Under the pieces are notes generated by a model, which was not told the DNA's origin, ran no database searches, and saw only the letters and a list, made by a program, of their open reading frames with translations. 64,000 bases of DNA from a virus (lineage: Duplodnaviria > Caudoviricetes), in IMG/VR virus record IMGVR_UViG_3300025000_000055; one strand, written 5' to 3'. Positions within the stretch are counted from its first letter, which is position 1; every line of letters starts with the position of its first letter. Shown here in pieces: positions 41,901 through 59,464 of the stretch. The position numbers and the translations under genes were made by a program.

Positions 41901-42758
41901 TAAACTTCCAATACGACCAATCCAATATTCAATATCATTTAAAAATTCAAAACTTAATCTATTATTAGAAACATTCATAATCATGAAAACTATACTCTGC
42001 ACATATAGATATTTGTTAAAGAAGAATCTATTTACTTTTATTAACATTTTCTTATTAATACGAAAATATATATATTTGTCTAAATCTGTTTCATTTTCTG
42101 TAAATTCTATAATAGAATCAACTGAAAAATATTTAAGTGTTTTTTCAACACCCATTTTAGCAAAATAAAATAAAAGTACATCGACTTCTTTTCTAAACAC
42201 AAATACCCCATAAGTATTAGCAATATAAGTTTCTCCCTGAGTATCTGGATATTCCTTTTTGTTTCTTTTTAACGACAATGGCATTAATGATTTTAAAATT
42301 AAATTTTGTTTGGTTGTATAAGTTGAACTATCAACAAGTTGATATATTAAGAAGTATTTTTTACCTTTAATAGTGTAATATCCATTTTCATCTGGAATTG
42401 GTACTAATAATTTCTTAGTATATAATTTGCTTTTATTTTTACAATTTAGATTAAATTTTAATTTTAGTTCACCATAGCGACTATCTTGTAAATACATATA
42501 TTTTTCTGTAACTTTTTTATTATCAGCATCCTTAGTCTGTTTAACTTTTTGTCTTGTTGATATATAGTCATTAATATCAATTTTAGATTCATCATCAATG
42601 AATTCATATCCAAGAAACTTAATATTTTTAAGAATTTCTAATGACTTACAACTATTGACGATATAATTAATCAAATTATCATCATGAGTATGATTAATTA
42701 TATCATAGTTGATTCTTTCTTCATTAGGATTCCTATAATGTTTTATAAACTTTTTCAT
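38903..42758 (-). CDS. rpoB: Phage RNA polymerase beta-like N-terminal subunit (probably non-virion), join(42758..41526,40352..40194,39205..38903), about 564 aa
   Basis: YFLIYQLVD, restored LLRFD|DKIND..KGPNSLG and CGNS|DPGTSG, typical of phiKZ/AR9 split beta subunits. Confidence 0.85.
39206..40193 (-). mobile_element. Group I intron with HNH ORF; terminal nucleotide A instead of G
   Basis: Family core. P1: exon CUCU pairs with GGAG. The 3' end is GTGAACATAACA|GAT. Confidence 0.88.
39413..39997 (-). CDS. Intron-encoded NUMOD4/HNH homing endonuclease
   Basis: YEISNYG, IHRLVG, INHKDTNKTNN..NLEW. Confidence 0.9.
   Translation of the reverse strand: MIIFIKPHEEEWKDIIEYNVKNIYEISNYGKVRNKLTGRFLSPFTDKDGYLRCTLKGYKKQRKFYIHRLVGYYFLPLKVFFNEKYIHINHKDTNKTNNFYKNLEWSTPKENIDHSWREGLQKPVKGERHGCNKYSETLIRGICILLEKGYSEYEIRKEMNMIVKDKKQNESYRGLVKHLRKRTSWVHISKDYTY
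40353..41525 (-). mobile_element. Group I intron with HNH ORF in the beta-N gene
   Basis: AATTGTCGGG, AATCCGCAGC, GTTCAAAGACTA, AAGATATAGTCT; ends GTGAACACAACG. Confidence 0.9.
40517..41302 (-). CDS. Intron-encoded HNH homing endonuclease
   Basis: YSINSDG, IHRLLA, IHHKDSINKFN. The ORF 3' end overlaps the ribozyme P7 5' strand. Confidence 0.88.
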   Translation of the reverse strand: MKKEDWVKIDLPQVKKNYSINSDGFIRNDKFNRILKNSKNTKEYEYIQLSCIDGKFRNFLIHRLLAYYFMSDFNISDKSMIIHHKDSINKFNKLDLLEKCTQKENIAYSYKEGNKPIGEKHPLSKFSDKLSKQIVSLLQENKSTDIIIYELNLENKKNIRTFINDLRAKRTRIYLTENIDLNKCKQKRYDEELIRNIIKFMKQGLKHKKIIDKLGLNNLSKREIRNLYTLMSNIKSGRSWKKLYKGESSKTIEKYVIEINI

Positions 42759-42801
42759 ATAATACCACCTTTCTAGAAAAATATAATACTTTAAACATTA
42801 T

Positions 42802-42841
42802 ATATCCAATAGGAAACCAATTAAGGTTTCCTATTGGATAT
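42802..42841 (-). terminator. Hairpin terminator
   Basis: 17-bp stem ATATCCAATAGGAAACC / GGTTTCCTATTGGATAT. Confidence 0.8.
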
Positions 42842-42851
42842 TATATATTTT

Positions 42852-43211
42852 CTATTCTTCTTCGTCTTCTGTTACTCCATCATCCTTGACCATAAGCTTA
42901 AATTCTTGACCAGGGATTAAAAACGGTGTAAAATTACCTACTTTCTCACCTTCATCGTTTTCCCTGTATGAAATACCCATGTCAAAAAGCTGCATCAAGT
43001 TGATAGAAATATCTTCACCAGCAGTTTTCTTTTCGTTTAAATAAGCAATTGCTTGCTGTAAGAAACGATAAGAAATTGTTGCAATTGCCGGTGCATGTGT
43101 AACATTAATATTGTGCTCACTGATAAGAGCTTTATTTGCTCTGTCACAAATCTTAGCAATTTCCTTCTGATTCTCTCTGATTTCCAAAAATACTGCGTCT
43201 TCTTTAGCCAT
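42852..43211 (-). CDS. Small protein, possibly HU/IHF-like DNA-binding
   Basis: C-terminal PFLIPGQEFKLMVK resembles HU PAFKPGKALKDAVK; AACA-N6-TA at 43253-43242. Confidence 0.4.
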   Translation of the reverse strand: MAKEDAVFLEIRENQKEIAKICDRANKALISEHNINVTHAPAIATISYRFLQQAIAYLNEKKTAGEDISINLMQLFDMGISYRENDEGEKVGNFTPFLIPGQEFKLMVKDDGVTEDEEE

Positions 43212-43269
43212 AATAATTTAACCTCCCTTATTTTTTAATACTAATATTTTGTTATTAGCATATTAGTTT

Positions 43270-45423
43270 TTAATTATTTTTTTCATACTTAAATATCTTA
43301 TAGGCATTTTCTAATGTAACTATACGTATGTTATCTTTTTTAGCTTTTTCAACTTTAGATGATTGAACATCTAATTCTCTTACAATTAATAAAGAAATAT
43401 CTTTATTGTAATCAGAAACTAATATTCCTTTACTATCAAGGAACTTTTCAAATTCCCTATCACGAACTTTTGTAAAACATACCTTACCGATATATTTACG
43501 TAAATCTTCTTGTATATCTAGCTCGGAACATAAGAAATTTATAAGTTCAATATTACTATTTACTCCTTTAATTATCTTTTCAGCTGTTTTATTTTTTATT
43601 CCCCCTATCATAGTTAATTTTTTTACATCATTATCTAAACAAATGTCTTTTAATTCATTTAAATAATATATATTTAAAATCTTTTTAAATATTTTTCTCC
43701 CTATATCTGGTATTCCTAAAGAACCTAATACCTCATAATTATAAACTTTCTTACGACTTTTAATACTTTCAATTATTTTATCAACTATTTTTTTACCAAA
43801 ACCTTTAAATAATAAAATATCCTTTATTCGATCTTTAATAAAATATAAGTCTTTAATACTTTTTAAAACATTGAGTTTATATAGTACTGTAATAATACCA
43901 ACAGAAATATTAGGTATAGACATTTTTTCAACATAATTAATTATTTTACCTATTTGTCTAGAATCACAATTTTCATTAATACATTTTAATATGGGGTCTT
44001 TAACTAATAATTCTTTACAATATTCACAAGTAGTTGGTGTTTTAAATATCTTACCTTTTTCATTTCTTTTACAAGTTTCATTTATAATCAAATAAGGTAT
44101 TATATCATATTTGATTATAACTTCATCACCTTGTCTCAATCCAATTTCTTCAAATCTATCTATAGAACCTAAAGAAATATTAGTTATAGTGTTTCCATTT
44201 ATTTTAACAGGTTCAATTATTACTACAGGAGTTATTGAACCTAAAATCCCAGTTGACATTATAACATCTTTAACTATAGTTCTTTTTTGTTCAGGTGGTA
44301 ATTTATACGCAACTTCAAATTTATTAATACTATTCTCTCTCCCAAGTTGTTTAATGGTATTTTCATTTGCAAGTGTTATAACAACTCCGTCAATCGGGAT
44401 ACCATCTTTTCTAACTGAACGAACCATAGTTTCAATAACTCGTTCAATATAATCGAAGTCGGTAATATCTTCAATTAAACTAAATCCTATTTTACTATTT
44501 AAAATTGATGTAGCAAATTCATCATTTACTTTCTGATATTGAAGTGGTACTATTGTTAGATATTTTAAAAGATTTTTATTTATATCTTTACTTGTATTAA
44601 GAATTGAAGAAACAGCACTTCTTGAATTTTTTAGTATTCTTTCATTTTTACAAAATTTTTCAAAATCAAAATCTTTCATAATAATTTCTGTTTTTACACC
44701 ATAATCCTCATTAAATATCATAAATTCGTATTTATTATCATCACACATCATAACCTCTTTATAATATGTAATATCTACAAGACCGAAATTAAATTCGATT
44801 CCACTAAATAAATCAGTTATATCTATTGCCTCATTATTATCAACGTCACCTCTGGTTAAAACTTTATCAGCTATTTTTAAATTAGATTTAAATTCAAAAA
44901 TACCAGATATACCATCATATTTTGGTGTCATTCTAGCAACTTTCTCAACATTATTTAACTTTCGCCCCAATTTATTTTCAACACTTTTTATCCATTCTTC
45001 TAATGATTTTCTATTATCTTTCCCTTTATCCTCTTTTCTAAGAAAATGAACTTTATCTAAAGTTCCTCTTAAAGCTGGATATCTATGATATCCTATTTTT
45101 CTATCTTTAACTTTATTAATTGGAGCACCAACAATATCTTTCATCTGTAAATCTTTATTTAATTCATATAGTCTATCATAGTCTTCATCTGTAACAGGAG
45201 AAATAACTTCACTATTATTATAAATATCTTGTAAAATTCTTATTATTAATTCAATTATAACTAAATCATCTGAATCATAATTTTCAGTTCCACTTAATAA
45301 AATATTAATAATTCTATTAATACCAATTACATTTAATTTTTCTACAACTACTTCATAGTCATCAGTTAATCTTTCAACAAAAATAACTGATAAAGAATCA
45401 ATAATATTTTTTTTATCCATCAA
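43270..45423 (-). CDS. ligA: NAD-dependent DNA ligase
   Basis: KYDG adenylation motif, LTRGD, DGVV, zinc finger CEYC..C..ENC, HhH repeats, BRCT-like tail. Confidence 0.93.
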   Translation of the reverse strand: MMDKKNIIDSLSVIFVERLTDDYEVVVEKLNVIGINRIINILLSGTENYDSDDLVIIELIIRILQDIYNNSEVISPVTDEDYDRLYELNKDLQMKDIVGAPINKVKDRKIGYHRYPALRGTLDKVHFLRKEDKGKDNRKSLEEWIKSVENKLGRKLNNVEKVARMTPKYDGISGIFEFKSNLKIADKVLTRGDVDNNEAIDITDLFSGIEFNFGLVDITYYKEVMMCDDNKYEFMIFNEDYGVKTEIIMKDFDFEKFCKNERILKNSRSAVSSILNTSKDINKNLLKYLTIVPLQYQKVNDEFATSILNSKIGFSLIEDITDFDYIERVIETMVRSVRKDGIPIDGVVITLANENTIKQLGRENSINKFEVAYKLPPEQKRTIVKDVIMSTGILGSITPVVIIEPVKINGNTITNISLGSIDRFEEIGLRQGDEVIIKYDIIPYLIINETCKRNEKGKIFKTPTTCEYCKELLVKDPILKCINENCDSRQIGKIINYVEKMSIPNISVGIITVLYKLNVLKSIKDLYFIKDRIKDILLFKGFGKKIVDKIIESIKSRKKVYNYEVLGSLGIPDIGRKIFKKILNIYYLNELKDICLDNDVKKLTMIGGIKNKTAEKIIKGVNSNIELINFLCSELDIQEDLRKYIGKVCFTKVRDREFEKFLDSKGILVSDYNKDISLLIVRELDVQSSKVEKAKKDNIRIVTLENAYKIFKYEKNN

Positions 45424-45519
45424 TTTAATACATCCTCCTAATATTTTTTATAATATACATAAGTATATAATATATAAATAAAAAATAAAGATTATTATCA
45501 ATCTCTATTTTTTATGTTT

Positions 45520-46563
45520 TTAATATCCTCGATACCCATCTTCAATTTTTTCTATAAATTTAATCTCATATTTATTAAGTTTAAAGGTTTTTATACCCAT
45601 CCATGAAGAATATGTTGGTTGAATTTCTTTTTTATATTCCATCGCAGGAAATCTAAAACCTGTTTTAGTTATACAAGTTAATAACTTACTATTTCTTTTT
45701 ATAGATTCTTCTTTAATATTAGGATATCCACCTTCAAATAGAGAAAACCCATCAACTACAATATAATTTCTATATTGTAGTTGTTTTGTAGTATAATAAA
45801 CTCTCATTAATAAACCTGGAACTAATTTAGATTTAGGGGAAGATTTATATCTATCATAATAAAACTCTCTGGTTTTTCTATGAAGAATAAGTTTCTTTCC
45901 ATTATCCATAAAAGAAACAAACTCTCCATTTTCAAGTACAAATAATCTAATTTCATATTTTCTAGATGGATTTATAGTAAACTTTGGAGTTGAACCTGAA
46001 ATAATATGTGTGTTTATAATCTTTCTATTAATAAAATCTAAAACAAAATCATATCTACCATATTTTTTATTACAATTAAAATCAAATTTTGCAATGTTAG
46101 TTAAAGTAACTTTACATGTTTTATTAGCATAAAACATAAAACGATCTGCTGAATTACTGACAGAATCAATTCTATGAATAAAAACTTGTGGATGTTTATT
46201 TAAATCACTAGTTCTAGTTATTAATGTTTCATAATATTTAAAAATTATTATATGATAACCTGGTTTAATCATAACTTTAGCTTGTTCGAATTGATTAAAA
46301 GATTTTGTATTAACATCTTTATATTCAATATCAGAATATCCATCACGAGTTATACCAATTGGCCTATTAAACTTTTCGTCTGTTATTACCATAACATATT
46401 CATTTGGTATCACAAATTCAGATAAAAAACAATTCTTTAAATTTTTATTCTCAAAATAAATATTATACTTTTTACCAACTTCTGTTGTATCAAGTTCATA
46501 TGACTTAAAATCTGTAGGTTCAAACGCATCGACTTCATTCCTAACTACAATCATAAAAAACAA
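45520..46563 (-). CDS. Hypothetical protein
   Basis: 347 aa ORF. Confidence 0.75.
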   Translation of the reverse strand: MFFMIVVRNEVDAFEPTDFKSYELDTTEVGKKYNIYFENKNLKNCFLSEFVIPNEYVMVITDEKFNRPIGITRDGYSDIEYKDVNTKSFNQFEQAKVMIKPGYHIIIFKYYETLITRTSDLNKHPQVFIHRIDSVSNSADRFMFYANKTCKVTLTNIAKFDFNCNKKYGRYDFVLDFINRKIINTHIISGSTPKFTINPSRKYEIRLFVLENGEFVSFMDNGKKLILHRKTREFYYDRYKSSPKSKLVPGLLMRVYYTTKQLQYRNYIVVDGFSLFEGGYPNIKEESIKRNSKLLTCITKTGFRFPAMEYKKEIQPTYSSWMGIKTFKLNKYEIKFIEKIEDGYRGY

Positions 46564-46680
46564 CTCCTCTAAATTATAAATATTCTTATATAATATAAAC
46601 TTTTCAAAAATGTTTATTTGTTAATACAATAATATATAAATGAAAAAAAATGAGGAATAAATATTTCCTCATTAAATTTA

Positions 46681-47871
46681 TTAAAATCTTGCACCTTTAT
46701 ATAATTTTCTTAAATATTCATCTGAAACAAATACATCACCATTGTCTTTTATTTTCTTATCACCATTTTCCTTTTTATCTATTATATCTTGTTGTTTAGG
46801 AGGATTGGAAACAACTATCAATTTCTTATTTTCAACTTCTTTCTTTTTAAACTTTTCATACTCAACTATAAATATAGCTGGTAAACCTGAAATACAGGTA
46901 TCATTGAACTTAGTTCTAACTGTAGCGTACCAGGCCAATGCATCACCATGTAGAGTTTGGATACTACTATTAAATAAATTATCATTTACTTTAAAGAAAT
47001 TTAATAGTTGTAATCGGTCAGATTCTTTTGAATTACTTAGAAAATCATTTATGGATTTTTTAAGTAATTTTACACTACCAACATTACAAACAATTAGTGA
47101 ATTATTTTGTTTCTTAGAAGAAATAACATCTTCAAGAATAACCCTTTTCATAATCATTATAATTGGTTCTTCCGATAACCCATCAAGCAATTTTCTTATA
47201 TCTTCATCTTCTTTCATAATATCATCACTAAATGAACTAAGCTTATTATTAACTGTTTTAATAACTTCATCATCATTCAATAAGGATAACGTTTTTATTA
47301 AATCAGTGTATTTAGCACCAAGCTCAATCTTGAGCTCTACTCCTATATTTCTAATACAAAAAGTTATCAGCTGGTCTTTTACTAAATCTAACGAGCAATT
47401 ATTTAAAAGCTCATTTTCAATAAGACCAATTTGAATTTCCGGATTAATATTAACTTTTCTATCTTCTGTATTATCTGGGGCTGGAGAAGTTGTTGATCTT
47501 TCTTCTAGCACTTCCTTTAATACTTTTTTACTGTTTTTTGATAACAAAAATTCATTAGATATATCATTAATGAATTTATCTGTATCGATAACTAAACCAT
47601 TAGCATGTTCGTTAACAAGTTCACTCATATTTTTGAATTCATCAATAACATTGTTGTCAGTGCTGCTTTCTTCATCTAGAAAATTTTCTTTAAGAAATTC
47701 TACGACATTATCTTTTTCCCATATTCCTCCAGGAACATGAATATCAATAAGATAAGATTCATGTTCTTCAATATATTTTTTGAATTCTTCCCTGGTATTA
47801 ACATTTGTCGGGAGATTGTCAAAAAGTTCTTTTAAAATCTCCATTTTTTTCTTACCTAAATCCCCAGCCAT
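46681..47871 (-). CDS. Hypothetical protein
   Basis: 396 aa ORF with RBS. Confidence 0.75.
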   Translation of the reverse strand: MAGDLGKKKMEILKELFDNLPTNVNTREEFKKYIEEHESYLIDIHVPGGIWEKDNVVEFLKENFLDEESSTDNNVIDEFKNMSELVNEHANGLVIDTDKFINDISNEFLLSKNSKKVLKEVLEERSTTSPAPDNTEDRKVNINPEIQIGLIENELLNNCSLDLVKDQLITFCIRNIGVELKIELGAKYTDLIKTLSLLNDDEVIKTVNNKLSSFSDDIMKEDEDIRKLLDGLSEEPIIMIMKRVILEDVISSKKQNNSLIVCNVGSVKLLKKSINDFLSNSKESDRLQLLNFFKVNDNLFNSSIQTLHGDALAWYATVRTKFNDTCISGLPAIFIVEYEKFKKKEVENKKLIVVSNPPKQQDIIDKKENGDKKIKDNGDVFVSDEYLRKLYKGARF

Positions 47872-47995
47872 CGTACTACCCCCTAAATTTCATATTTTTT
47901 TTTACATAATAATTACAAGGAACATAGATAAAATTAAATCTTTTATTTATCTATTATAATAATATATATTTATAATGCTAAAAATACTAAAAATG

Positions 47996-48027
47996 AATAT
48001 ACCGACATATTAATATGTCGGTATATT
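47996..48027. terminator. Perfect 32-bp palindrome, probable terminator
   Basis: AATATACCGACATATTAATATGTCGGTATATT immediately after the RNAP gene stop. Confidence 0.7.
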
Positions 48028-48035
48028 TTTATTAA

Positions 48036-50922
48036 TCATACTTTAATATCAATAACGAACATTTCTTCTTTAATTCTTCGTCTCTCAACTTCTTCATCTA
48101 AAAGTTTTTCGAAATCTTTTGTAGTACCAACAAATACTTTATTTTCCTTATATTCATTAATAATGTCTATTCGTCTTTTAATATCTTTAAATTCTTCATT
48201 ATTACTTATAAAGAATTTTCCATCATAAAATTTACCTTCAAGAAACCCAGTATTAATATCTATATCAAATAATTCATTATTAAATTCAATTTTTAAACCC
48301 ATAGATTTCAAAAAGGCTCCTAATATTTCAATATTTCTATTTTTAAAATTTGGTTTATATTTAAAATCTTTTATAGGGTTTAATCTTGTCATTAAATTTT
48401 CACCTAAATTACGTCTACCTATAACAGATGACCTATAAAATAAATGTAGTTGAGCTATTAGTTCAGTTGGAACACCTATATTAGTATTAAGATTTTCATC
48501 AATACCAATTCTTATAGGAGTCTTAGAATATAATTCCTGATGAGTTTTAGCCTTATTAGATTTTTCAGGTAAACCTTTTCTAGATAAAGTTCCAGTTGAT
48601 CTAGCTGAAAAACCTTTCTTAGCTGTTTGCATTAATTTCATTACATACATATCACCAACTACTAACTTTTTCATCATTTTAATTTTCCTACCAAATCTAT
48701 TTGTATAAACATCATATTGTTCAATCCAATCATGTTCTTCATATAATTGAATAAGTTTATCAAATAAAAATTCTTCTTCCCATAAAGGAGGTATATGAAT
48801 AAATACACCTTCTTCAACTAAATTATTAAAAAATTCTTCTTTACTAATAACACTTAATCTCTTTAAATATTGTCTTAATTTTTCTTCTTGGTCTTTATTA
48901 AAATAACTTATTATATTAAGAAATAAATCTTCCTTTTCTTTTATGTCAGTCATTGTTTGAATACGTTCTACAGTTCTATTACAAATAAAAGTAATTGATT
49001 GTTCAAAAAGCTGGTATGAGTTTACAATTGTTTTAGACCATATCTTCATCTCAAATGAGATGCCTCCCGTTTCGGGTTTCCCCTACTCTACTTACTTCTT
49101 CAGTTATAAGTAAATTATAACCTATGCTTTCGATGGTCGTTGAGCATATTTCAAATATTAATATTTGAAACTTCGCTGCGGATTATTCAATCTTAAACCT
49201 TTTTACCATACCTGAGTAATTACTTCAGCCCTTATCTATATGTCACCATGATAAGTTGGTAGATTAAGATTAGCGAACTTTCCCGCAATTAGAGAGGTTT
49301 TAAATCGCCTAAACCTTACCAGTCCAGCGATTGATCACAGATAAACTGTTAAACAGAAGGTCTACACGTTCTCCAGTTTCTAAAAATGGCATCTCATCAT
49401 CAGGTAATATCTTTGATATAACACCTTTGTTACCATATCTCGTTGTATTCACATAGAACGTTAATCTATGCAGTTCTCTCATGAACTTCCCTAGTTTTCA
49501 CTAAGATACTAGACTATATCATTAACCTAAATAAATTAGGTTACTTCCTATTTCGATTTAAGGGATTCTCACCCACCTACTTAGGCCCTACTCCTATTGT
49601 ACATTGCAGTACCTAAGGGATAGTCGTTGAACTTTATTCCTTATATAAGGAATCTTAGCTGCGGATTACTCAATCTTTTAATAATATAAATATTATTAAA
49701 AGCTCTAAGAGCCTCCCCGACAATTAAAGAAGTTTTCTATATATGTCACCACATATAGGGGCTAAGCTATGTAACCCGTTACTTTCTGACCCACTTCTAA
49801 ATAGGCATCTTTTTCAACTAAAAATTCTATTACTATATTGGAAAATACTGAGTTATTTTCTTCTCTCCATTTATATTTTTCGTCTAATATATTTTTTGCT
49901 TTTCTCATATAAAAACTTATTTCTCTAGAATATTTAGAACCAGAATCAATTATCTGTTTACATCTTTTAAATATTCTTTCATAATAAACTAATTGCATTT
50001 TATAATATTTCATTATCTGTCTATTAAAATCATTCTCTTCCAATTCATCTAAAGTTTTATTACAATATATATCTATATCAATAATTTTACCTTTACCTTC
50101 AATAAAGAATAATACATCAGAAGTAAAATCAATCTTTCTAAGATTAGATTTCTTTAAATCATATAATAATTGATTATTATGAATTCTCCTCTTAGCACAA
50201 ATTATTTTATCCTTAACATATTCGTTTATATCAGGAAATGTCTTATAATTATTACCATTCCCATATATATTACAAAAGATATCATTATCATTTAATGAAA
50301 CTTTAACTCTCTCAACTTCTGTTGAAACCATTCTTCTTGATAATGATTCTGAACATACAATAGCATCTTCAATAGTATTATTCTCTAAAAGATACATAAA
50401 CTTAACATTAGCACCATAACAATAATTCATATCTTCATCATAAGAAGAACTCTTATAAAGAACTTCTCCTTTATATATTGAAGTCCCAACTTCTTTATTA
50501 TCAATATTATCAGTATTATATTTGAAACCATATCTTTCTGTTAAATCTTCAACGTTTTTCTTTTCTATAATATCATATTGGTCATTTTCTTTATCATATA
50601 TGAATAATAAATATATTTGTTCTTCATTTTCACCATCTGTAAACTTACTAATTTTATCAATAATAACACAATCATTTTTAACTTTTTTATAACCAGTTGA
50701 ATTCTTACCAACTATATTTTCATAATTAGTAAAAATTCTTGGAAATTCGGGATTATTTAGAGTAACACATTGCTTCAAGTGAGCTGTAAACATAATATTT
50801 CTTGATGAACTAATATAACCTGGATTTGTTAAAAGAGTCATCCCAAATATATCATCTTTACCTTTAAACTCCTTTTCTTTTTCTTGTAATATTTCTTTCA
50901 ATGACATTGTAGTTTTATACAA
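48036..50922 (-). CDS. rpoB: Phage RNA polymerase beta-like C-terminal subunit (probably non-virion), join(50922..49774,49440..49326,49024..48036), about 750 aa
   Basis: Splicing restores KVTG|RYGNKGV (GRHGNKG motif) and INRL|NSYQLFE (SRMN.GQ..E motif; phase-1 junction T|TA). VGDMYVMKL...ARSTG follows. Confidence 0.9.
49025..49325 (-). mobile_element. Divergent ORF-less group I intron, apparently lacking P9
   Basis: AATTGCGGG, AATCCGCAGC, CTCAACGACCA, AAGATATGGTCT. P1: exon AAUCGCU pairs with GGCGAUU. Only 10 nt separate P7 from the terminal G. Confidence 0.85.
49441..49773 (-). mobile_element. ORF-less family group I intron in the beta-C gene
   Basis: P1: exon GGGU pairs with GCCC; ends GTGAATACAACG. 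Confidence 0.93.
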
Positions 50923-51013
50923 ATCTGTGTACCCCCTTATTTAGAAATTATTATTGAGAATGTATATTCATATAATATATAAATACACATTCTCTAGTTT
51001 TTATTATAAAAAA

Positions 51014-52970
51014 TTATATAGCTTTTTGAAATTGTTTTTCTTGTGATTTTTCTAACCTATCACATAATTCAAAAATATTTAATAATTGACCATTTTCTTC
51101 TGGTTCAACATGCGATAGTTGTTTTTCTAATATAGGTAATGACCTATTAAATAATTCGTATCTTAATTTTTCATTAGTAAGAAATTCTTTTCTAAATTTT
51201 CTACTATCAAATTTAATATCTTTTACACCTTCAATATATTTATAAGGATTACGACCAGCAATTAATTCATTATCTTCAGCAAATCTTAGTTGAGTTAAAA
51301 TAGGGTCAAAACCAGTGGATTGGTCATAAATAAGATTTACAAATTGACCAGCTTTATTTGTTCTAGATTTTAGAAACTCAGCTCTTACACCAAATCCATC
51401 AAAACCATTTTCTTCTTTCTTAAATTTTTCTGAACCTAAAGCTATAAAATTAACTAATAAATTAGCATAATAGATCGATTTATTCACATTGGTTGTCAGT
51501 CAATGCAGTTCTCTTATGAACTTCCCTAATTTTCATTAGGATACTAGACTATATCTTCATCCTTAATAAATTTTATTAAGGAGTTACCCATTTCGTAAAG
51601 AACTCTGAAAAGTTCACCTCACCATTATTGACTTGTGAGTCTACTCCTACTTTACTTTTATTAAAAGTAACGTCATCAGATAGTCGTTGAACTTTATTCC
51701 TTATTAATTAATTAAGGAATCTTAGCTGCGGATTACTCAATCTTTTTATTATATAATAAAAAGCTCTAAGAGCTTCCCCGACAATTAAAGTAATGCTAAC
51801 ATAATATTACTATTATGCCACCCTAAATTTAGGTGCATTCCCACCCGTTAAGTTCACATAGTTCGTCAAACTATGCAGTTCTCTTATGAACTTCCCTAAG
51901 CTTTCCTTAGGATACCAGACTATATCATTAACCTAATAAGAATTATTAGGTTACTTCCTATTTCGATTTAAGGGAATTTCACCCACCTACTTAGGCCCTA
52001 CTCCTATTGATCATTTCAGATCCAATGGGATAGTCGTTGAACTTTATTCCTTATTAATTAATAATAAGGAATCTTAGCTGCGGATTACTCAATCTCTTAA
52101 TAATATTAATGTATTAAAAGCTCTAAGAGCTTCCCCGACAATTAAAGAAGTTATTCAACATACATTACTGTATGAGGCCCCACAAATCTCGAGTTTAGGG
52201 ATACTCTGATCCATCTTCATATATAATAATTGTGGTTGCGTTTTATGCATAGGGTTAATTTCAATTTTTTGATTAATATGATTTATAGCAATAACATTTA
52301 TGTTATAGGCTTTTATAATTGGCATTAGTCTCTTATAAAATTGGGCCAAAGCTTTAGCAACTCTGTTAGCATAAGTCCCACCTTCCATTTCATTAGAAGC
52401 ATCTTTTGAAGCAACAGTTGGAATTGAATCTATAATCATAACTGTTGGAACAAAGGTTTTAATGGGTCTATTAAATTCATCAACTAATCCTGTATCATAA
52501 GTATAATCTTTTCTATTAACTTCTTTCTCTTGAGCTATTTCAACTATACTATTAAATATATCTTCAATATAATTTTTTTCTTGTTTCAATAAATATTTAT
52601 CATCAAGTTCTTGCTGAGTCATAGATGTTACATTTTTTATTCTGGTATAAGATAATACTTGTTCTAAGTCGTAATGTTGAACAAATGCATTATCAACAAA
52701 TTTTCTAACAATATTGGCTGCAATTTGAATAGCAAAAGTAGTTTTAGCAGTACCAGCCTTACCTATAATTGTCATAAACGTACCACCAACTATACCAATA
52801 GAAGAATAAGTAGTTATAAGTTTCTCATCTAAATCTCTAACTTCCACCATATACCCATTTCTATAATCAAATGGTACAAAACCTGTTGGATAACAAATGG
52901 ATGTTTGTGTTGGACTAAATAAACCCTTTTTATCTTTTTCTCTTAATCTTGAGAGCATTTTATTAGCCAT
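51014..52970 (-). CDS. recA: RecA/UvsX-like recombinase, join(52970..52197,51845..51831,51475..51014), about 416 aa
   Basis: Walker A GKAGTAKT, Walker B IIDS, INHI. Splicing restores QSIP|GGNAP|IYYA (RecA TPGG.ALKFYA). Confidence 0.88.
51476..51830 (-). mobile_element. ORF-less group I intron 2 in recA
   Basis: P1: exon CACCU pairs with GGGUG; ends GTGAATAAATCG. Confidence 0.92.
51846..52196 (-). mobile_element. ORF-less group I intron 1 in recA
   Basis: P1: exon CCCU pairs with GGGG; ends GTGAACTTAACG. Confidence 0.92.
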
Positions 52971-53103
52971 TTTTATTTTTCATCTCCTTATAAAATTTTA
53001 TTGACTTTCTTTATATGATAGTTGTTCTAAAGATAGAATTCTAAAAAATATAAAAAAAATAAAGAATGGAATTAACCATTCTTTATTTTATTAAAAGTAT
53101 ATT

Positions 53104-54039
53104 TTAATATTTCTGTTTTATGATTTGACCATTATTCAACATAATGAAGAATACTTTAAAATGATGTTCTAGCTGAGATAGGGCATTTGAATAAGTCCTC
53201 TTAACCCTATTATTATAATACTCTGAATTAACAAATAATGTTACTGCATTAAATCTTTGTGCCTTTAGTTCTTCAATAACATACTGCAATTCAACATTGT
53301 TAAATTCAACGATGTTGAAAGCATTAGTATTACTATATTTTTGATGCAAACTTTTTAGTATACTAACTTCCGAACGCATTGACAAAATAGTATGAGTTGG
53401 TCTATTAGGTCTATAATTTGATATAATGTATGGTGTATATTTATCACCATTTTTAGATTCTACAATTTTTTTAGAAAATAGAAGTCTATTTATTTTATTA
53501 GTAATTTCTATTTCATCCCCGTTAGATTTATCTACATCCGTACTAATTAAACTATCCTCAATAATAGTGAATGTATAATCAATATCTGATTTAGTATACT
53601 TATCGTACAATTTAATCTCTAAAGGATTATCTTTTTTATTTATACTTGCAATAATCGTTAATTCACCTTCAAGTGAATAATTCTCTAGTAAACAAATAAA
53701 TTGTTTACTAATATTGACAAGCATTCTTTTACCAATATTTAATGTAATTAGCATGATATCAGTATTATGCTCATTTTTACTTTCAACTATAAATGGGTTA
53801 AAGTCTTTCTTCCCATAAATAATACTTGTTGGTGTACTGGTAAGAATACCAGGTTCTTTCATTTTAATAAATTTTAACAAACCATCATTATCCAATGGCG
53901 GAATTATATTCCCCATACATCTAATGAAACAATTCACAACAATTACAGGGGAATCTTTTCTTTTAAAAAAGGCACTAGTCTTACTATTAAGAGTATTAAT
54001 CTCCCACGGTCTTGGACTTTCGTTAAAAATTCCTATCAT
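53104..54039 (-). CDS. Hypothetical protein (paralog of the next gene)
   Basis: Shares FNE..PWEI, NPFIV.S and RP.RPT with 54088..54996. Confidence 0.75.
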   Translation of the reverse strand: MIGIFNESPRPWEINTLNSKTSAFFKRKDSPVIVVNCFIRCMGNIIPPLDNDGLLKFIKMKEPGILTSTPTSIIYGKKDFNPFIVESKNEHNTDIMLITLNIGKRMLVNISKQFICLLENYSLEGELTIIASINKKDNPLEIKLYDKYTKSDIDYTFTIIEDSLISTDVDKSNGDEIEITNKINRLLFSKKIVESKNGDKYTPYIISNYRPNRPTHTILSMRSEVSILKSLHQKYSNTNAFNIVEFNNVELQYVIEELKAQRFNAVTLFVNSEYYNNRVKRTYSNALSQLEHHFKVFFIMLNNGQIIKQKY

Positions 54040-54087
54040 AATAAATCTCCCCCTATTTTATTATTTTTATTTTATAAATACAATTTT

Positions 54088-54996
54088 TTAATACTTATAT
54101 TGTATTATAGAACCATTGTTCAATAAAATAAACACCGCTTTAAATTTTGATGTAAGTTCTTGTAATATTACTTTATATTTATCTTCTAATCGTTCAATTG
54201 ATTCATTAGAATCAACAAATAGAGTTATAACACTGTATCTATTACTCTTTAATTCCCCAATAAGGTCTTTAAGATTTTCCTCACTAAAATAAGTAAACAA
54301 ATTATGGTATTGTAAGTTATTCTTAACAACCTTTTCCATAGTCCGTTCCATTTTTGAATACACATCATTGGAACATATAACTATTTGTGTAGGTCTTTTC
54401 GGCCTGTTATTCTTTATTTTTATAACAACAGGTTCAAATAGTTTATTTAATTTCTGTATAGATTTTTTACATCTTAAATTAAAATTTTGATTATACATAA
54501 TTTTATATTGAGTTATCTCTTTGTCTTTTTCATTATAAAGAGAGATATAACAATAAGAATCTGTATTTGCTTCCATCGAGATTACTATATTTAACTCATT
54601 TTTATTAAGACTATTGTCAATAATAAAATTTCTATCCATCTGAATATCAAATAAGATTTTATCTCTAACATCCAAACTTAATAGTATAACGTTTCTGTTA
54701 TTTCCACTTCTTGATTGTACAATAAATGGATTCAAATCTTTATATCCAAATAAAACATTTGTATCAACATCACATATCTTAACAACATCTATGGTTTTAC
54801 CAATGTTATTAACAGTTGTTTTAATTTTATTTATAAAATCTTCTTCCGGGGATGTTAAATAAATCCCACAATTATAAGTACGAATTTTCTCTTCATCTTC
54901 TTTGAAAAAATCATACTTTTTAGAAATCTGTAAATATTTACTACCCTCCCTTGATATTTCCCAAGGCTTTTCTGTTTCATTAAATAAATAAATCAT
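54088..54996 (-). CDS. Hypothetical protein (paralog of the previous gene)
   Basis: 302 aa; same motifs as 53104..54039. Confidence 0.75.
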   Translation of the reverse strand: MIYLFNETEKPWEISREGSKYLQISKKYDFFKEDEEKIRTYNCGIYLTSPEEDFINKIKTTVNNIGKTIDVVKICDVDTNVLFGYKDLNPFIVQSRSGNNRNVILLSLDVRDKILFDIQMDRNFIIDNSLNKNELNIVISMEANTDSYCYISLYNEKDKEITQYKIMYNQNFNLRCKKSIQKLNKLFEPVVIKIKNNRPKRPTQIVICSNDVYSKMERTMEKVVKNNLQYHNLFTYFSEENLKDLIGELKSNRYSVITLFVDSNESIERLEDKYKVILQELTSKFKAVFILLNNGSIIQYKY

Positions 54997-55158
54997 AACC
55001 CGACCTCCTATCTCTATATCTCATCTTTTCTATTTAATATTTCTGTTTATTTCCAAATTATTTTTAATTAATCATAATTTTCCATTTCCTATCATTCCTT
55101 TAAATAAATTAATATAAAGTTGATTTAATAAATCAACTTTATATTATTTTTATTAATT

Positions 55159-56031
55159 TTATAAAAATTTTTTATTTTTCATATCAGAAATAACATCTGA
55201 TACTTTAGGATATGTTTCAGCACTTACCTGTGTAAATTGAATCCGACGAGCACTATCTTTACCTCGTTTATCATCTCTTTCACGACGGTCAATAAAATAG
55301 GCTAGTCTTTCTTTAATTTCTTTCTTCTTACCTTCTTCAAGATAAGATAAAACAAAGTTAGTTAAAATATTCCAGATTATCATCTGTTTGTCATCTAAAT
55401 GACGGATGATATCTTTTCTTTCAAGGGCGATTTCCATAATAACTGCATTCAAAAAATCTTCATTAAATAAAGACATAAAAAGTTTCTTTAAAATTTTATT
55501 GTCTAGTTTTAATTCAGATTCTTTACTCAAAGCATAAAGTTTACGAATAAGTCTCTGCACATAAATTCCAATTATCCTCTCATTTTCAATCATAGATTTA
55601 TCAGGTATAATAGCTAGTAATTCCTTAATTGTACTTTCATCTAAATCAACTTTTTTCTTAATTTTCTTGACTTTCTTTTTAAGCAATTCATCAATAATAC
55701 CACAGTATATATCATTAACATCAGTTTCAATCTTATCATGATTTCTTTCTAAAAAGTTATAAAGTAAAACAACCAATGCGGGGTCGTTGTTTTCTTTATT
55801 TTCTTTAACAACCTTCTTCAGAGTTTTAGCAAATTTTAAATCCATCATTTTTTCAAATATAACAGTTACAATGTCCTGCTCCTTAAAACCTCTGCGAATA
55901 TAAAAGGTTGTAAGGTCTGAAAGGTTATCTGAAATCACACGAAGCCTTTCATCTTTATTCATTTTCTTAGGTTTCCATTCTTTTAATAATTCTTTTACTG
56001 ACATTAAAAATTCCTCCTTTAAAATATACAA
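55159..56031 (-). CDS. Hypothetical protein
   Basis: 290 aa ORF; AACA-N6-TA at 56054-56043. Confidence 0.75.
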   Translation of the reverse strand: MYILKEEFLMSVKELLKEWKPKKMNKDERLRVISDNLSDLTTFYIRRGFKEQDIVTVIFEKMMDLKFAKTLKKVVKENKENNDPALVVLLYNFLERNHDKIETDVNDIYCGIIDELLKKKVKKIKKKVDLDESTIKELLAIIPDKSMIENERIIGIYVQRLIRKLYALSKESELKLDNKILKKLFMSLFNEDFLNAVIMEIALERKDIIRHLDDKQMIIWNILTNFVLSYLEEGKKKEIKERLAYFIDRRERDDKRGKDSARRIQFTQVSAETYPKVSDVISDMKNKKFL

Positions 56032-56208
56032 TAAGTTTCTAATATTAATTTGTTGTTTATTTACAAATTAATTTTTATAATTCTCAACTCCTTAAAATTT
56101 AATCTTTATACTTTAAAAATAATATATATTTATAAAGTAAATATAATTTTTTATATAATAATAAAAAATAAACATAGATAATACACTATCTATGTTTATT
56201 TGCCATCA

Positions 56209-57036
56209 CTAATTAAAACAATCTAAAGTATAAATTCCATCTTTATCTGGACTATTAAATATTATTGATGTTTCATCAGATATATTTAGAGCTGGACGAA
56301 CACCAAATATCATATTAATAAAACATGATCTATACGTCACCCCTAAATAATTAACATAGGTGGGTGATGGTATAAGAAATGATCTACTTCGTAACCACCA
56401 CATCCACCCATGATTTCTTTCTCTTTTTTTCTTATTAATTTTAATATTATCATTATAACATTCTTTTGATAAAGTTGTTATACGTTTTTCAATATTCCCA
56501 ACAAAAATAGGCAAAATATCAGAACCTTCAATATTATTAACTTCTGCTCCAACTTCCACTAATGATAAAAGAAACACTTTATCTATTAAGTCATCAGTTA
56601 ATTTGGTGTCATGTTCATTTTTTATAACCTTAATATTAGTATCTAAAATCTTAGAAAATTCATTAGTAGTAAAGTGACTTAAAAATCCTGAAACTGTATT
56701 TAACCAGTAACGTATATCGGAAGTACCATATGATTTTATTTTATCTTTTGAAAAAGGGTGTAAATCAATAATTTCATCTGTCAATAAAGTAACAGAATTC
56801 TCAGGATAACCCGGATGGTTCTTAGCAACTATTCTCCAAATAACAGGTGTTATTTCATTGTCACCAACTTTATAACTACCAAATCTAACTTTGTCACTAA
56901 TATTTAATTCTTTAATTAATTTAGACATATCACCACTCCTTTTATATTTTTTATTTAAATATAATATATAAATATAATCTTTTATATTTGTTTCTAGATA
57001 TATAAATATATAATAAGATGTGTTTATTAAACACAT
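56209..57036 (-). CDS. DUF6273-like protein
   Basis: SDIRYWLN..FL..F, DKVFLLS..E, WWLRS, GVRPAL; the true start is probably MSKLIK. Confidence 0.65.
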   Translation of the reverse strand: MCLINTSYYIFIYLETNIKDYIYILYLNKKYKRSGDMSKLIKELNISDKVRFGSYKVGDNEITPVIWRIVAKNHPGYPENSVTLLTDEIIDLHPFSKDKIKSYGTSDIRYWLNTVSGFLSHFTTNEFSKILDTNIKVIKNEHDTKLTDDLIDKVFLLSLVEVGAEVNNIEGSDILPIFVGNIEKRITTLSKECYNDNIKINKKKRERNHGWMWWLRSRSFLIPSPTYVNYLGVTYRSCFINMIFGVRPALNISDETSIIFNSPDKDGIYTLDCFN

Positions 57037-57225
57037 CTTATTATATATTATTTACTTAAATTATCTAAATTAGTTTTTACAGATGACTCAATTAATGTCT
57101 CTAAATCATCCTTTTTTTTAATCTTTTTCTTTGTTGGGTCCTCAATATCTAATTCCCCAAATACACCAACTTCAGTTAGTAAACATAGTTCTTCATTATT
57201 TTCTAACATATTTTTCAACCTCCTA

Positions 57226-58935
57226 TTATTTTAAAGATTTTTTAACTAGTAAACCCTTTGTAACTAAGTCACTATTTATACCCATACTCGTCAAATGCAC
57301 ATCAATTAAATTTAATGTTACTTTATTTTCAACATTATTAGTCAAACTATTTAGAGAAACAAATCCTTTTTGTGCTATAGATGCATACATTTCATTCTTC
57401 ATAACCATATCATCGGCTCTCGGCGATAAGTTCATATTGTTCGTTAGACAATACAGTTCTCTTATGAACTTCCCTAGGGTTTCCCTAGGATACCAGACTA
57501 TATCACTAACCTAAAAATATTAGGTTACTTCCTATTTCGATTTAAGGGATTCTCACCCACTCACTTGAGCCCTACTCCTATTGCTTATTTCAAAGCCTAA
57601 AGGGATAGTCGTTGAACTTTATTCTTATTTTTTAATCATAATTTTATATTTTTTCGAAATATGACCCCATTTACCATATTTTATACCATCTATTAAACTA
57701 TAAAAACTATTATTGTTCTTTCTTTTTTTATAACCATATATATGCATTATTTGCATTTGAGTAAGCCCCTTCTCAAGATATTCGCATATTTCAGTAACTA
57801 ACGCTTCTGAATATTTAGCATAATAATTTAAACTACCATTACAACCAAATCTACTTTTACCATGAATTAAACTAAAGTCATTATTTTCTTTAGTTGTAAC
57901 CCATTCAAGATTTTCGTAATAATTATTAAATGAACATGTATCTTTATGATTCACATTGATTATACATTGTTCTTTATTATAACCATTAATAAATTCCCAA
58001 GCAACAAGTCTATGTATTGCAACATTTTTAATTTCTTTATTTTCACCCATTAATCTTAAATGTAAATATCCTTTTTTATCATGAAAACATTTTAAAAATC
58101 TATCAGTTTTTATATTTTTTATTTTACCATAGTTACTTATTAAATAAGTATTCTTTTTAATAGATGGATATGTAATATTTCGAAAAATTTCTTTATCTTT
58201 TTTAATAACTATATACATTTTTTATCATCCTTTTAAAATAAATTAAAAAAATGTATAATAAGATATTAAAAAATAATATAACTTATAAATAAGAATCTTA
58301 GCTGCGGATTACTCAATCTTTTTATTTATATAAATAAAAAGCTCTAAGAGCTTCCCCGACAATTAAAGAAGTTTTCTATATATGTTACCAATATATAGGG
58401 GCTAAGCTATGTAACCCATTAGCTCTCTTAGTGCATCATTGGCTCCAACAGATAATAATGAAAAGTTTTCTTGATCTGATTCTCTAGCGTTTTTATCTTC
58501 ACCAACGACCTGACCAGTCATTGCAGAACGACTTGAACTTTTTGTTGATAAAGTATTTTTTTTACTCAATAATTGTTGCATTCTTTTAATATGAACATAA
58601 CCAACAGGTACTTCGTATTTAGTAACAACGGGATTATCAATATTATTATTAACAAAAGGTACTACTATTTTTTCGAATAAAGGTATATCTAATACTTTAG
58701 CCGCTTTTTCTATATTGTCAATATTTAAATCTCTCTCATAATCAACCATATCTAAAATAAGATATTGGTCATCATCTTTAAAAAATTCTTTAAAAAAAAT
58801 ATCGAATTGTTTATCACTCATTGGTTGAAATAGTTCTTTATATTTTTTAGTGTTTATACTTGTTGGGTCTAAAGCATCAAACGTATCATAAATTAGTTTT
58901 TCCATCTTTTTTCTTTTATTTTTAATAAGATTCAT
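57226..58935 (-). CDS. rpoB: Second RNA polymerase beta C-terminal fragment (probably virion RNAP), join(58935..58414,57423..57226), about 239 aa
   Basis: VGYVHIKRMQQ...RESDQENFSL...ALRELMG|PRADD aligns by eye with the bacterial beta C-terminus GEME..AL...TVKSDD. Confidence 0.8.
57424..58413 (-). mobile_element. Family group I intron with HNH ORF
   Basis: 5' end TACATAGCTTAGCCCC is identical to that of the 49441-49773 intron; ends ATGAACTTATCG. Confidence 0.92.
57625..58218 (-). CDS. Intron-encoded NUMOD4/HNH homing endonuclease
   Basis: YLISNYG, IHRLVAWEF, VNHKD..NN..ENLEW. Confidence 0.9.
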   Translation of the reverse strand: MYIVIKKDKEIFRNITYPSIKKNTYLISNYGKIKNIKTDRFLKCFHDKKGYLHLRLMGENKEIKNVAIHRLVAWEFINGYNKEQCIINVNHKDTCSFNNYYENLEWVTTKENNDFSLIHGKSRFGCNGSLNYYAKYSEALVTEICEYLEKGLTQMQIMHIYGYKKRKNNNSFYSLIDGIKYGKWGHISKKYKIMIKK

Positions 58936-59032
58936 CCTCCTTTACTAAAAATATATACATCTTTCTTAAAAATTTGTTCTGTAAATATGAAAAAACAATT
59001 ATTTAAAATAAAAAGGAGGTTGATTTTTTATT

Positions 59033-59464
59033 ATGGAAAAAAATATTCTTATTATTAAAAGAGAGCTTAATATAATAAAAATAGATTATTTAGATAAAAA
59101 TAAAAATACTATAGACAAAGTATCTTACCAAATAAAGAATATGGGATATGAAGCATTTGATGATTTCAAAAATACAGTTGTCCCTTTCTTTAAAAAATAT
59201 TTTAAAGAATCTCAAATAATTTTTTTAAATGAACGCCATTTATTAACTTTATTTGTAAAACTATTAAAAATTTGTATTAAAGATGATAAAATCCCTCCAA
59301 TTAGAGCTAATATTAATGAGAAAAAAAGACATTACATTATAAATATATTTAAAGAGATTGATGATTCAAAAATTGAATCAAATAGAAATATGACATTTAA
59401 TTTATTTAAATATTTTGATTATTTAGTATTAAATTATTGCTGGTTGGATATAGGAAGGAAATGA
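59033..59464 (+). CDS. Hypothetical protein
   Basis: 143 aa; AGGAGG RBS; AACA-N6-TA at 58994-59005. Confidence 0.7.
   Translation: MEKNILIIKRELNIIKIDYLDKNKNTIDKVSYQIKNMGYEAFDDFKNTVVPFFKKYFKESQIIFLNERHLLTLFVKLLKICIKDDKIPPIRANINEKKRHYIINIFKEIDDSKIESNRNMTFNLFKYFDYLVLNYCWLDIGRK

Follow-up and report, generated by a model that had tools for sequence, protein, structure and literature searches.

We analyzed a 64,000-nucleotide (nt) stretch of viral DNA (IMG/VR virus record IMGVR_UViG_3300025000_000055), hereafter the window, with a focus on two group I introns, designated A and B, which interrupt two different genes for beta-type subunits of RNA polymerase (RNAP) on its minus strand and start with the same guide sequence. 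The window has a G+C content of 25.7% and derives from an uncultured groundwater jumbo phage, whose proteins are 35-43% identical to those of AR9/PBS1, Listeria phage LPJP1 and MarsHill-like Staphylococcus phages; it is an AR9-like groundwater jumbo phage. Three to four close genomes were available for comparison. Two of these are IMG/VR contigs from the same groundwater sample, G001 (249,853 bp, rated complete) and G002 (74,946 bp), both collinear with the window at about 85% nt identity (window-G001 86.4%, window-G002 84.9%, G001-G002 82.6%), and L034/L044 represent a fourth assembly. In intron labels, W, G1 and G2 stand for the window, G001 and G002, respectively (e.g., W_A, G1_A and G2_B). 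An exact-pattern scan of genome contigs returned no match, and the corresponding scan of metagenomes found matches only in the records underlying G001 and G002. Viral contigs L032 and L035 matched the 17-mer pattern as well, but in unrelated sequence and by chance.

Gene A encodes the C-terminal half of a non-virion RNAP (nvRNAP) beta subunit and is 36-38% identical to the nvRNAP beta of AR9 (g089), PBS1, Listeria phage LPJP1 and Staphylococcus jumbo phages (tblastn); its AR9 homolog has no interruption. Exon 1 (49774..50922) ends with AAAGTAACGGGT (KVTG) and is followed by intron A (49441..49773), a 333-nt intron without an open reading frame (ORF), which scored 76.4 bits (E 1.9e-18) with RF00028 (gathering threshold 50 bits) and has G at 49441 as its last base. 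Exon 2 (49326..49440; 115 nt), recognized by reading frame and homology, starts with AGATATGGTAACAAAGGT (RYGNKG), and the intron accordingly splits KVTG|RYGNKG. Site A lies in a GRHGNKG-type motif, exon 2 being homologous to the GRHGNKG...NPL region of E. coli beta. Gene A has a second and divergent group I intron, C (49025..49325; 72.9 bits with RF00028), which begins only 115 nt after the end of intron A. It does not have the core of the family to which A and B belong, its P1 is AAUCGCU/GGCGAUU (7 bp; misplaced in the Rfam alignment), its junction INR|LNSYQLFEQ restores the frame, and the relative L045 reads through the corresponding site (...DLIFNSL). The spliced translation of gene A remains open through exon 3 (48036..49024), which has a beta-like motif, to the stop codon, and beta motifs are present.

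Gene B encodes a C-terminal piece of the virion RNAP beta subunit, with 40-43% identity to AR9 g078 and its counterparts in Goe21 and phiR1-37 (g203), which are described as structural protein or RNAP beta (tblastn). Exon 1 (58414..58935) ends with GAGCTAATGGGT (ELMG), intron B (57424..58413) is 990 nt long with G at 57424 as its last base, and exon 2 (57226..57423), identified by spliced translation, starts with CCGAGAGCCGATGAT (PRADD), the intron thus splitting ELMG|PRADD. This region of the protein aligns with LQEMLT/VKSDD of E. coli beta. Within the P6 loop of intron B there is an ORF of 594 nt (57625..58218) for a putative 197-amino acid (aa) HNH/NUMOD4 endonuclease, which matched Pfam NUMOD4 at 27.7 bits (cut-off 23.4) and HNH_3 at 24.5 bits, just below the cut-off of 24.8. 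The ORF is intact in G002 (78% aa identity), absent from intron B of G001, and 41% identical to the ORF of intron I5 of the window; its paralogs in other introns of the family are 31-41% identical. Because this ORF splits the intron, RF00028 did not report intron B in the window, while the ORF-less ortholog of G001 scored 78.2 bits; the core of intron B nevertheless aligned with the family over P3-P9, column for column.

Both A and B are group I introns. They show a U.G wobble at the 5' splice site, where the last exon U pairs with an intron G, and a terminal G before an in-frame 3' exon; both spliced ORFs are open, and precise removal of the introns restored the host frame. Moreover, since intron-less alleles of both sites exist, the splice junctions could be confirmed to the nucleotide.

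A shared guide module at two non-homologous sites

The first 21 nt of introns A and B are identical. The window has two copies of this 21-mer and no more, one at the start of each intron (49753-49773 and 58393-58413), where no repeat would be expected by chance. The next ~25 nt constitute the P2 hairpin and differ at three positions, and identity between the introns in the 50 nt preceding P3 is 92%. In both introns, P1 consists of exon GGGU and intron UA paired with the internal guide sequence (IGS) UAGCCC across a 7-nt loop, directly followed by P2, a 9-bp hairpin. In intron A, the exon GGGU is located at 49777..49774, the IGS at 49764..49759 and P2 at about 49757..49737; in intron B, the P1-P2 module covers 58413..58376, with the IGS at 58404..58399. 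P1/P2 was also the predicted minimum-energy fold (-16.1 kcal/mol, z -3.6 for intron A). The modules of W_A, G1_A, W_B, G1_B and G2_B were 88-98% identical to one another, and among the window introns this module was restricted to A and B. The nearest outside module, that of G1_I4, was 79-83% identical to them, sharing only P2 on a different P1. Both the 7-nt loop of P1 and its 2-bp intron extension can vary freely, and other introns that read GGGU (W_I1, G1_I1 and intron 1 of AR9 g078) have different versions of them. As A and B match completely or almost completely in the loop, the extension and P2, none of which is forced by the exon, the guide hairpin of the two introns is shared by descent.

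The two introns are inserted in different RNAP beta-type genes and at positions that are not homologous, since gene A has its own copy of the region that matches site B. Thus, the claims of an initial annotation of this DNA, that two introns with the same 5' end occupy non-homologous GGGU sites in two RNAP genes, that they split the motifs given above, and that only one of them has an HNH gene, all held. Its further statement that the two exons share only their last four bases needs correction, as the 5' exons share TAAYGGGT at 7 of 8 positions. An 8-mer, GATATGGT, is also present in both 3' exons, at +2 in A and +13 in B and in different reading frames. The joint chance of the two similarities was about 0.003 among random GGGT-site pairs, a figure calculated post hoc; these elements (window 49785-49415 and 58425-57398, minus strand) may be recognized by an endonuclease or be coincidental.

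Occupancy of the two sites varied among related phages. Site B was occupied in all three close phages, by an intron with the HNH ORF in the window and G002 and by an intron without ORF in G001. Site A was occupied in the window, in G001 and in the fourth assembly, in which site B was not seen, and was empty in G002, where ACGGGT directly precedes AGATATGG. In more distant relatives (51-67% aa identity), site A was empty in L046-L048 and site B in L038, L039, L040 and L043, the intron-less relatives having a contiguous G-PRADD at site B. Introns A and B were therefore both gained recently, within this small clade, and at least one of the sites was newly colonized by an intron with the A/B guide, because both are empty in distant relatives. 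None of the genomes examined had site A or B with a different 5' module. Gain and loss could not be polarized by a clean species tree of the three phages, which was ruled out by mosaic distances: over window positions 40700-59400, the window was nearer to G001 at 40-51 kb, around gene A, and nearer to G002 at 52-59 kb, around gene B. The presence of intron A and of the HNH ORF in intron B followed this local similarity. P10 was likewise considered as a marker of direction and rejected. The P1 loop CAUAGCU pairs at 6 of 7 positions with AGAUAUG of the 3' exon of A, and two transitions in G1_A keep wobble pairs; the duplex energy is, however, ordinary (12% of random 9-mers equal it), and B has an equally good alternative, a 4-bp GCUU/GAGC pairing at +5 to +8 that is present in two of the three genomes.

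Cores and guides in the intron family

Motif and hidden Markov model scans revealed 11 group I introns in the window, of which 10 form a family with nearly the same core and, after P9, a conserved tail. Its members are group I introns of the IA type that possess P7.1/P7.2, and their tail is ~50 nt long. The family has at least 19 copies in G001 and has colonized many essential genes of the window phage. We compared the cores, defined as P3 to the terminal G with the P6 insert excluded. Core identity between A and B was 84%, compared with 86-88% to the paralogs I10, I4 and I3 (individual values: A-I10 86.5-88%, B-I10 85-86%, B-I4 85%). Individual helices gave a mosaic picture. P5 of A resembles that of I10, and P5 of B that of I3/I4; P7.1 of B is like that of I5 and its P7.2 like that of I1; P9 of A is like that of I3, and P9 of B like that of I5/I6.

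In a maximum likelihood tree of 31 cores, W_A grouped with W_I10 (support 96/93) within a larger clade that comprised four introns of the window (98/96), G1_A with G1_73382 (98/94), and G1_I4 with G1_I10 (100/97). Forcing a clade of A and B cost 35-44 log-likelihood units. In approximately unbiased (AU) tests on constrained groups, p-AU was 0.055 when all five A and B copies were held together, 0.056 for W_A with W_B, 0.08 for the orthologs W_A and G1_A, and 0.55 for the three B orthologs. It should be noted that even the orthologous A introns of two related phages did not group and had a core identity of 82%, and that introns at orthologous sites differed in P5 architecture and ORF content, e.g., W_I4 is short and G1_I4 long with an ORF. 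As cores clustered by genome, orthologs included, we conclude that they evolve in concert within a genome: cores get converted, while the 5' end need not have been. Introns A and B are thus sisters in the P1-P2 module and not in the core, and over their whole length they were not each other's closest relatives. The initial annotation had proposed intron phylogeny as the check on transposition, with separate grouping of the remaining sequence implying conversion of the 5' end. The A and B cores indeed did not group, but the implied conversion does not follow, because orthologous A introns also fail to group; the core tree is unable to test copying of a whole intron and is uninformative in either direction.

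A second pair with a common 5' end was found in G001 (L011; 178406-179143 and 228199-228491, plus strand). Its members, G1_178406 and G1_228199, have 46 identical 5' nt after ATGGT, and their sites differ upstream of these five bases; one of the two splits the catalytic NADFDGD-type motif of beta-prime (GGDYDG|DQ). Similarly, an I10-type P1 recurs after CCCT at G1_135470 and G2_64210. At the I10 site itself (window 52200 region and G002 12040), the exon/IGS pairing is CCCU/GGGG in the window and G001 and ACCU/GGGU in G002. This compensatory change shows that P1 pairing is under selection.

The remaining members of the set of 11 are located at 8440-9448 on the plus strand and, on the minus strand, at 17153-16745, 20290-19976, 20830-20530, 40175-39205, 41520-40353, 51830-51476 and 52200-51846, in addition to the three in genes A and B (49325-49025, 49773-49441 and 58413-57424). 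An Rfam E-value scan of positions 1-48000 was empty despite the introns found there by gathering-threshold and motif scans, and this was treated as a filter artefact. Introns I10 and I9 lie in tandem in a gene for a RecA/DnaB-like ATPase and are separated by a 15-nt mini-exon of five codons (51845-51831, minus strand; GGTGGGAATGCACCT), an arrangement that is kept in both G001 and G002. Pairs of introns at the same site (window 20830-20530 and G001 52721-51651; I9/I10 and G002 11640/12040) kept the site-specific P1 and differed in P2, in P5 (short or P5abc-like long) and in ORF content, which suggests that the ribozyme body has been replaced while the guide stayed fixed. Finally, I5 (40175-39205, minus strand) and a G001 intron (73382-73030) are inserted in the same gene about 6 nt apart, after AACTCT and GATCCT, respectively; the 3' boundary of I5 is uncertain, as the frame requires a terminal A rather than G.

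Possible origins of the A/B pair

The explanation toward which we lean, by a narrow preference, is one P1-compatible ectopic colonization followed by homogenization of the cores. An intron with the A/B guide would first have resided at one of the two sites. Weak parsimony would make B the older one, because it is occupied in 3 of 3 close phages, and A in the window and G001, the closest pair locally near gene A. A copy would then have entered the other RNAP beta gene at a position where the last exon bases, TAAYGGGT, allowed the same guide to form P1, and, being able to splice from an essential mRNA, would have been retained. Subsequently, the cores would have been overwritten repeatedly by gene conversion with other family members of the same genome, the site-bound P1 staying in place. 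The P1 hairpin of the two introns is identical and both 5' exons end with GGGU, so that one IGS is complementary to both targets. A single colonization is also most economical, because both sites are ancestrally empty and neither has been seen with another guide. We infer from these observations that there was one event, that it had the direction given above, and that P1 complementarity either chose or filtered the site. Of the initial proposal of ectopic transposition through an IGS match, the non-homologous sites, the genuinely shared P1 and the empty sites of distant relatives thus stand; the sisterhood of the introns over their whole length does not, given the core identity of 84% and the W_A + W_I10 grouping.

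The mechanism by which a copy might have moved, including guidance by the IGS, can be envisaged in more than one way. Insertion could have proceeded by reverse splicing and reverse transcription, in which case P1 would act as a targeting device, or by an illegitimate event at the DNA level stimulated by an HNH nick, in which case P1 would be merely a filter for survival after insertion. With regard to the family as a whole, the 46-nt pair of G001, the recurring I10-type P1 and the compensatory change in G2_I10, taken together, fit P1 compatibility as a factor deciding where members settle. A broader idea, which we put forward only tentatively, is that introns of this clade reach new sites in essential protein-coding genes through the P1 guide, in a reverse-splicing-like and IGS-limited manner, with the guide remaining bound to its site and the ribozyme body kept uniform over about 20 copies by gene conversion.

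Several observations weigh against a single colonization guided by P1. As A and B do not have sister cores, copying of the whole intron cannot be demonstrated. P2 moves independently, as illustrated by G1_I4, which has an A/B-type P2 on its own P1, and the specific link between A and B therefore comes down to about 11 unconstrained nt of P1. In addition, GGGT is common (778 sites in the window plus G001), so that 4 nt alone cannot explain the choice of site, and TAAYGGGT and GATATGGT hint that recognition at the DNA level may have played a part. The reverse-splicing route in particular is weakened by the complete relative G001, which had no match to the RVT_1 reverse transcriptase (PF00078), although a host enzyme is possible.

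The strongest competing explanation is conversion of the 5' module: two family introns would have reached sites A and B independently, each with its own guide, and a gene-conversion tract would later have copied P1-P2 from one to the other. Such a replacement would be tolerated, as both exons end with GGGU, and the 7 of 8 matching positions of TAAYGGGT would give the tract an end point. Exchange of modules is frequent in this family, as seen in the moved P2 of G1_I4, in the P5 classes that differ between orthologs and in the clustering of cores by genome, and the core tree does not unite A and B. Besides, among the ~25 sites of a genome, chance alone should produce several pairs with a common 4-mer ending in U (a rough estimate). 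However, no genome showed either site with another 5' module, and the empty outgroup sites mean that this account needs two independent colonizations and one conversion, compared with a single colonization. It would also still require P1-compatible ectopic insertions to found each intron. On these grounds we regard conversion as a possible explanation but a rather doubtful one.

A less probable explanation, and in our opinion an unlikely one, is ectopic homing driven by the HNH enzyme, in which the endonuclease of intron B or a paralog would have nicked site A off-target, repair would have copied the intron at the DNA level, and the P1 match would have decided only its survival. The two sites do share more than the IGS match (TAAYGGGT and GATATGGT, with the post hoc chance given above), the ORF in B is intact and conserved in two of the three phages, related HNH enzymes encoded by introns in jumbo-phage RNAP genes make nicks close to the site of insertion (PhiPA3 gp210; PMC11620839), and relaxed endonuclease specificity has been proposed as an ectopic route (PMC3984707). 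On the other hand, intron A has no ORF, and GATATGGT lies at unequal distances from the two junctions, so that use of both microhomologies would delete or add 11-12 nt, which was not seen; for the same reason this 8-mer was rejected as a recombination anchor. Chance, convergence or an assembly artefact is highly improbable as the source of the same 5' end: the P1 stem is exon-forced and repeated cores can confuse metagenome assemblers, but the exon does not force the loop, the 2-bp extension or the 22-nt P2, which nonetheless match completely or almost completely, the same arrangement was present in independent assemblies from other samples (G001, G002 and L034/L044), and the window is collinear with G001 and G002.

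Comparison with known systems

How group I introns reach new sites is a long-standing question, and to our knowledge their ectopic transposition has never been shown directly. IGS-guided ectopic spread has already been proposed (PMC3984707, PMC1299323, PMC2504315). The reverse-splicing cases described for ribosomal DNA (rDNA) (2005, PMC1299323; Roman and Woodson; Birgisdottir and Johansen) resemble the A/B pair in that related introns occupy different sites, the targets share only 4-6 nt that pair with the IGS, and the evidence is circumstantial and phylogenetic. In contrast to these cases, A and B target mRNAs that encode proteins of a DNA phage, the complete relative G001 yielded no reverse transcriptase, and the cores have been scrambled by recombination, which makes the phylogenetic argument used for rDNA inapplicable.

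Like the window phage, AR9/PBS1 and MarsHill-like Staphylococcus jumbo phages are AR9-like, have two multisubunit RNAPs and have RNAP genes split by several introns, and these introns belong to the same family, including core and 3' tail. In MarsHill, for example, the virion RNAP beta gene has a family intron after GGGAT. The AR9 homolog of gene B, g078 (L003), has introns at 3406-3733 and 3846-5055. One of them is inserted after TCGGGT|TA, a site that is empty in the window, and the other, with a homing endonuclease inside, is inserted 9 nt further downstream than site B (GPRA|DNSV). This part of the gene has been targeted by introns repeatedly. Unlike in the window phage, sites A and B are unoccupied in AR9. 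Intron positions are reported to vary between AR9/MarsHill-like relatives (bioRxiv 10.1101/2020.12.14.422802). In the partial descriptions of these phages that we consulted, we found no report of a guide module common to two introns at non-homologous sites, and introns seem to be less dense there than in the present phages (11 in 64 kb of the window, at least 19 in the 250-kb relative). The intron in PhiPA3 gp210 (Birkholz et al. 2024, PMC11620839) resembles B with its putative HNH enzyme: it is a group I intron that interrupts a virion RNAP beta-type gene of a jumbo phage and encodes an I-HmuI-like HNH nicking enzyme, and it can act in competition between co-infecting relatives. It differs in belonging to the nucleus-forming Pseudomonas phages, in its insertion site and in being a single intron, with no second-site paralog with the same guide described. 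The cores of the present family were 78-80% identical at the DNA level to introns of the phage K family. Staphylococcus phages Twort and K, studied by Landthaler and Shub, reportedly have several closely related self-splicing IA2 introns per genome, some of them in tandem in one gene.

Thus, multi-intron jumbo phages with introns in RNAP genes (bioRxiv 10.1101/2020.12.14.422802) and HNH introns in such genes (PMC11620839) are already known. The present case adds that two introns in protein-coding genes share a guide and have naturally empty sites, that this pattern recurs in one family, and that the cores clearly evolve in concert. In practical terms, intron trees in multi-intron phages can mislead on the history of insertion. 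The A/B pair is a circumstantial case in phage protein-coding genes, comparable to the earlier ones, to which it adds natural intron-less alleles in both close and distant relatives, recurrence, and cores that evolve in concert while the guide stays with its site. If spread is indeed guided by P1, these phages, with their three recurrent groups of introns that share a guide, their naturally empty sites and their polymorphic occupancy, would provide a natural system for testing ectopic transposition.

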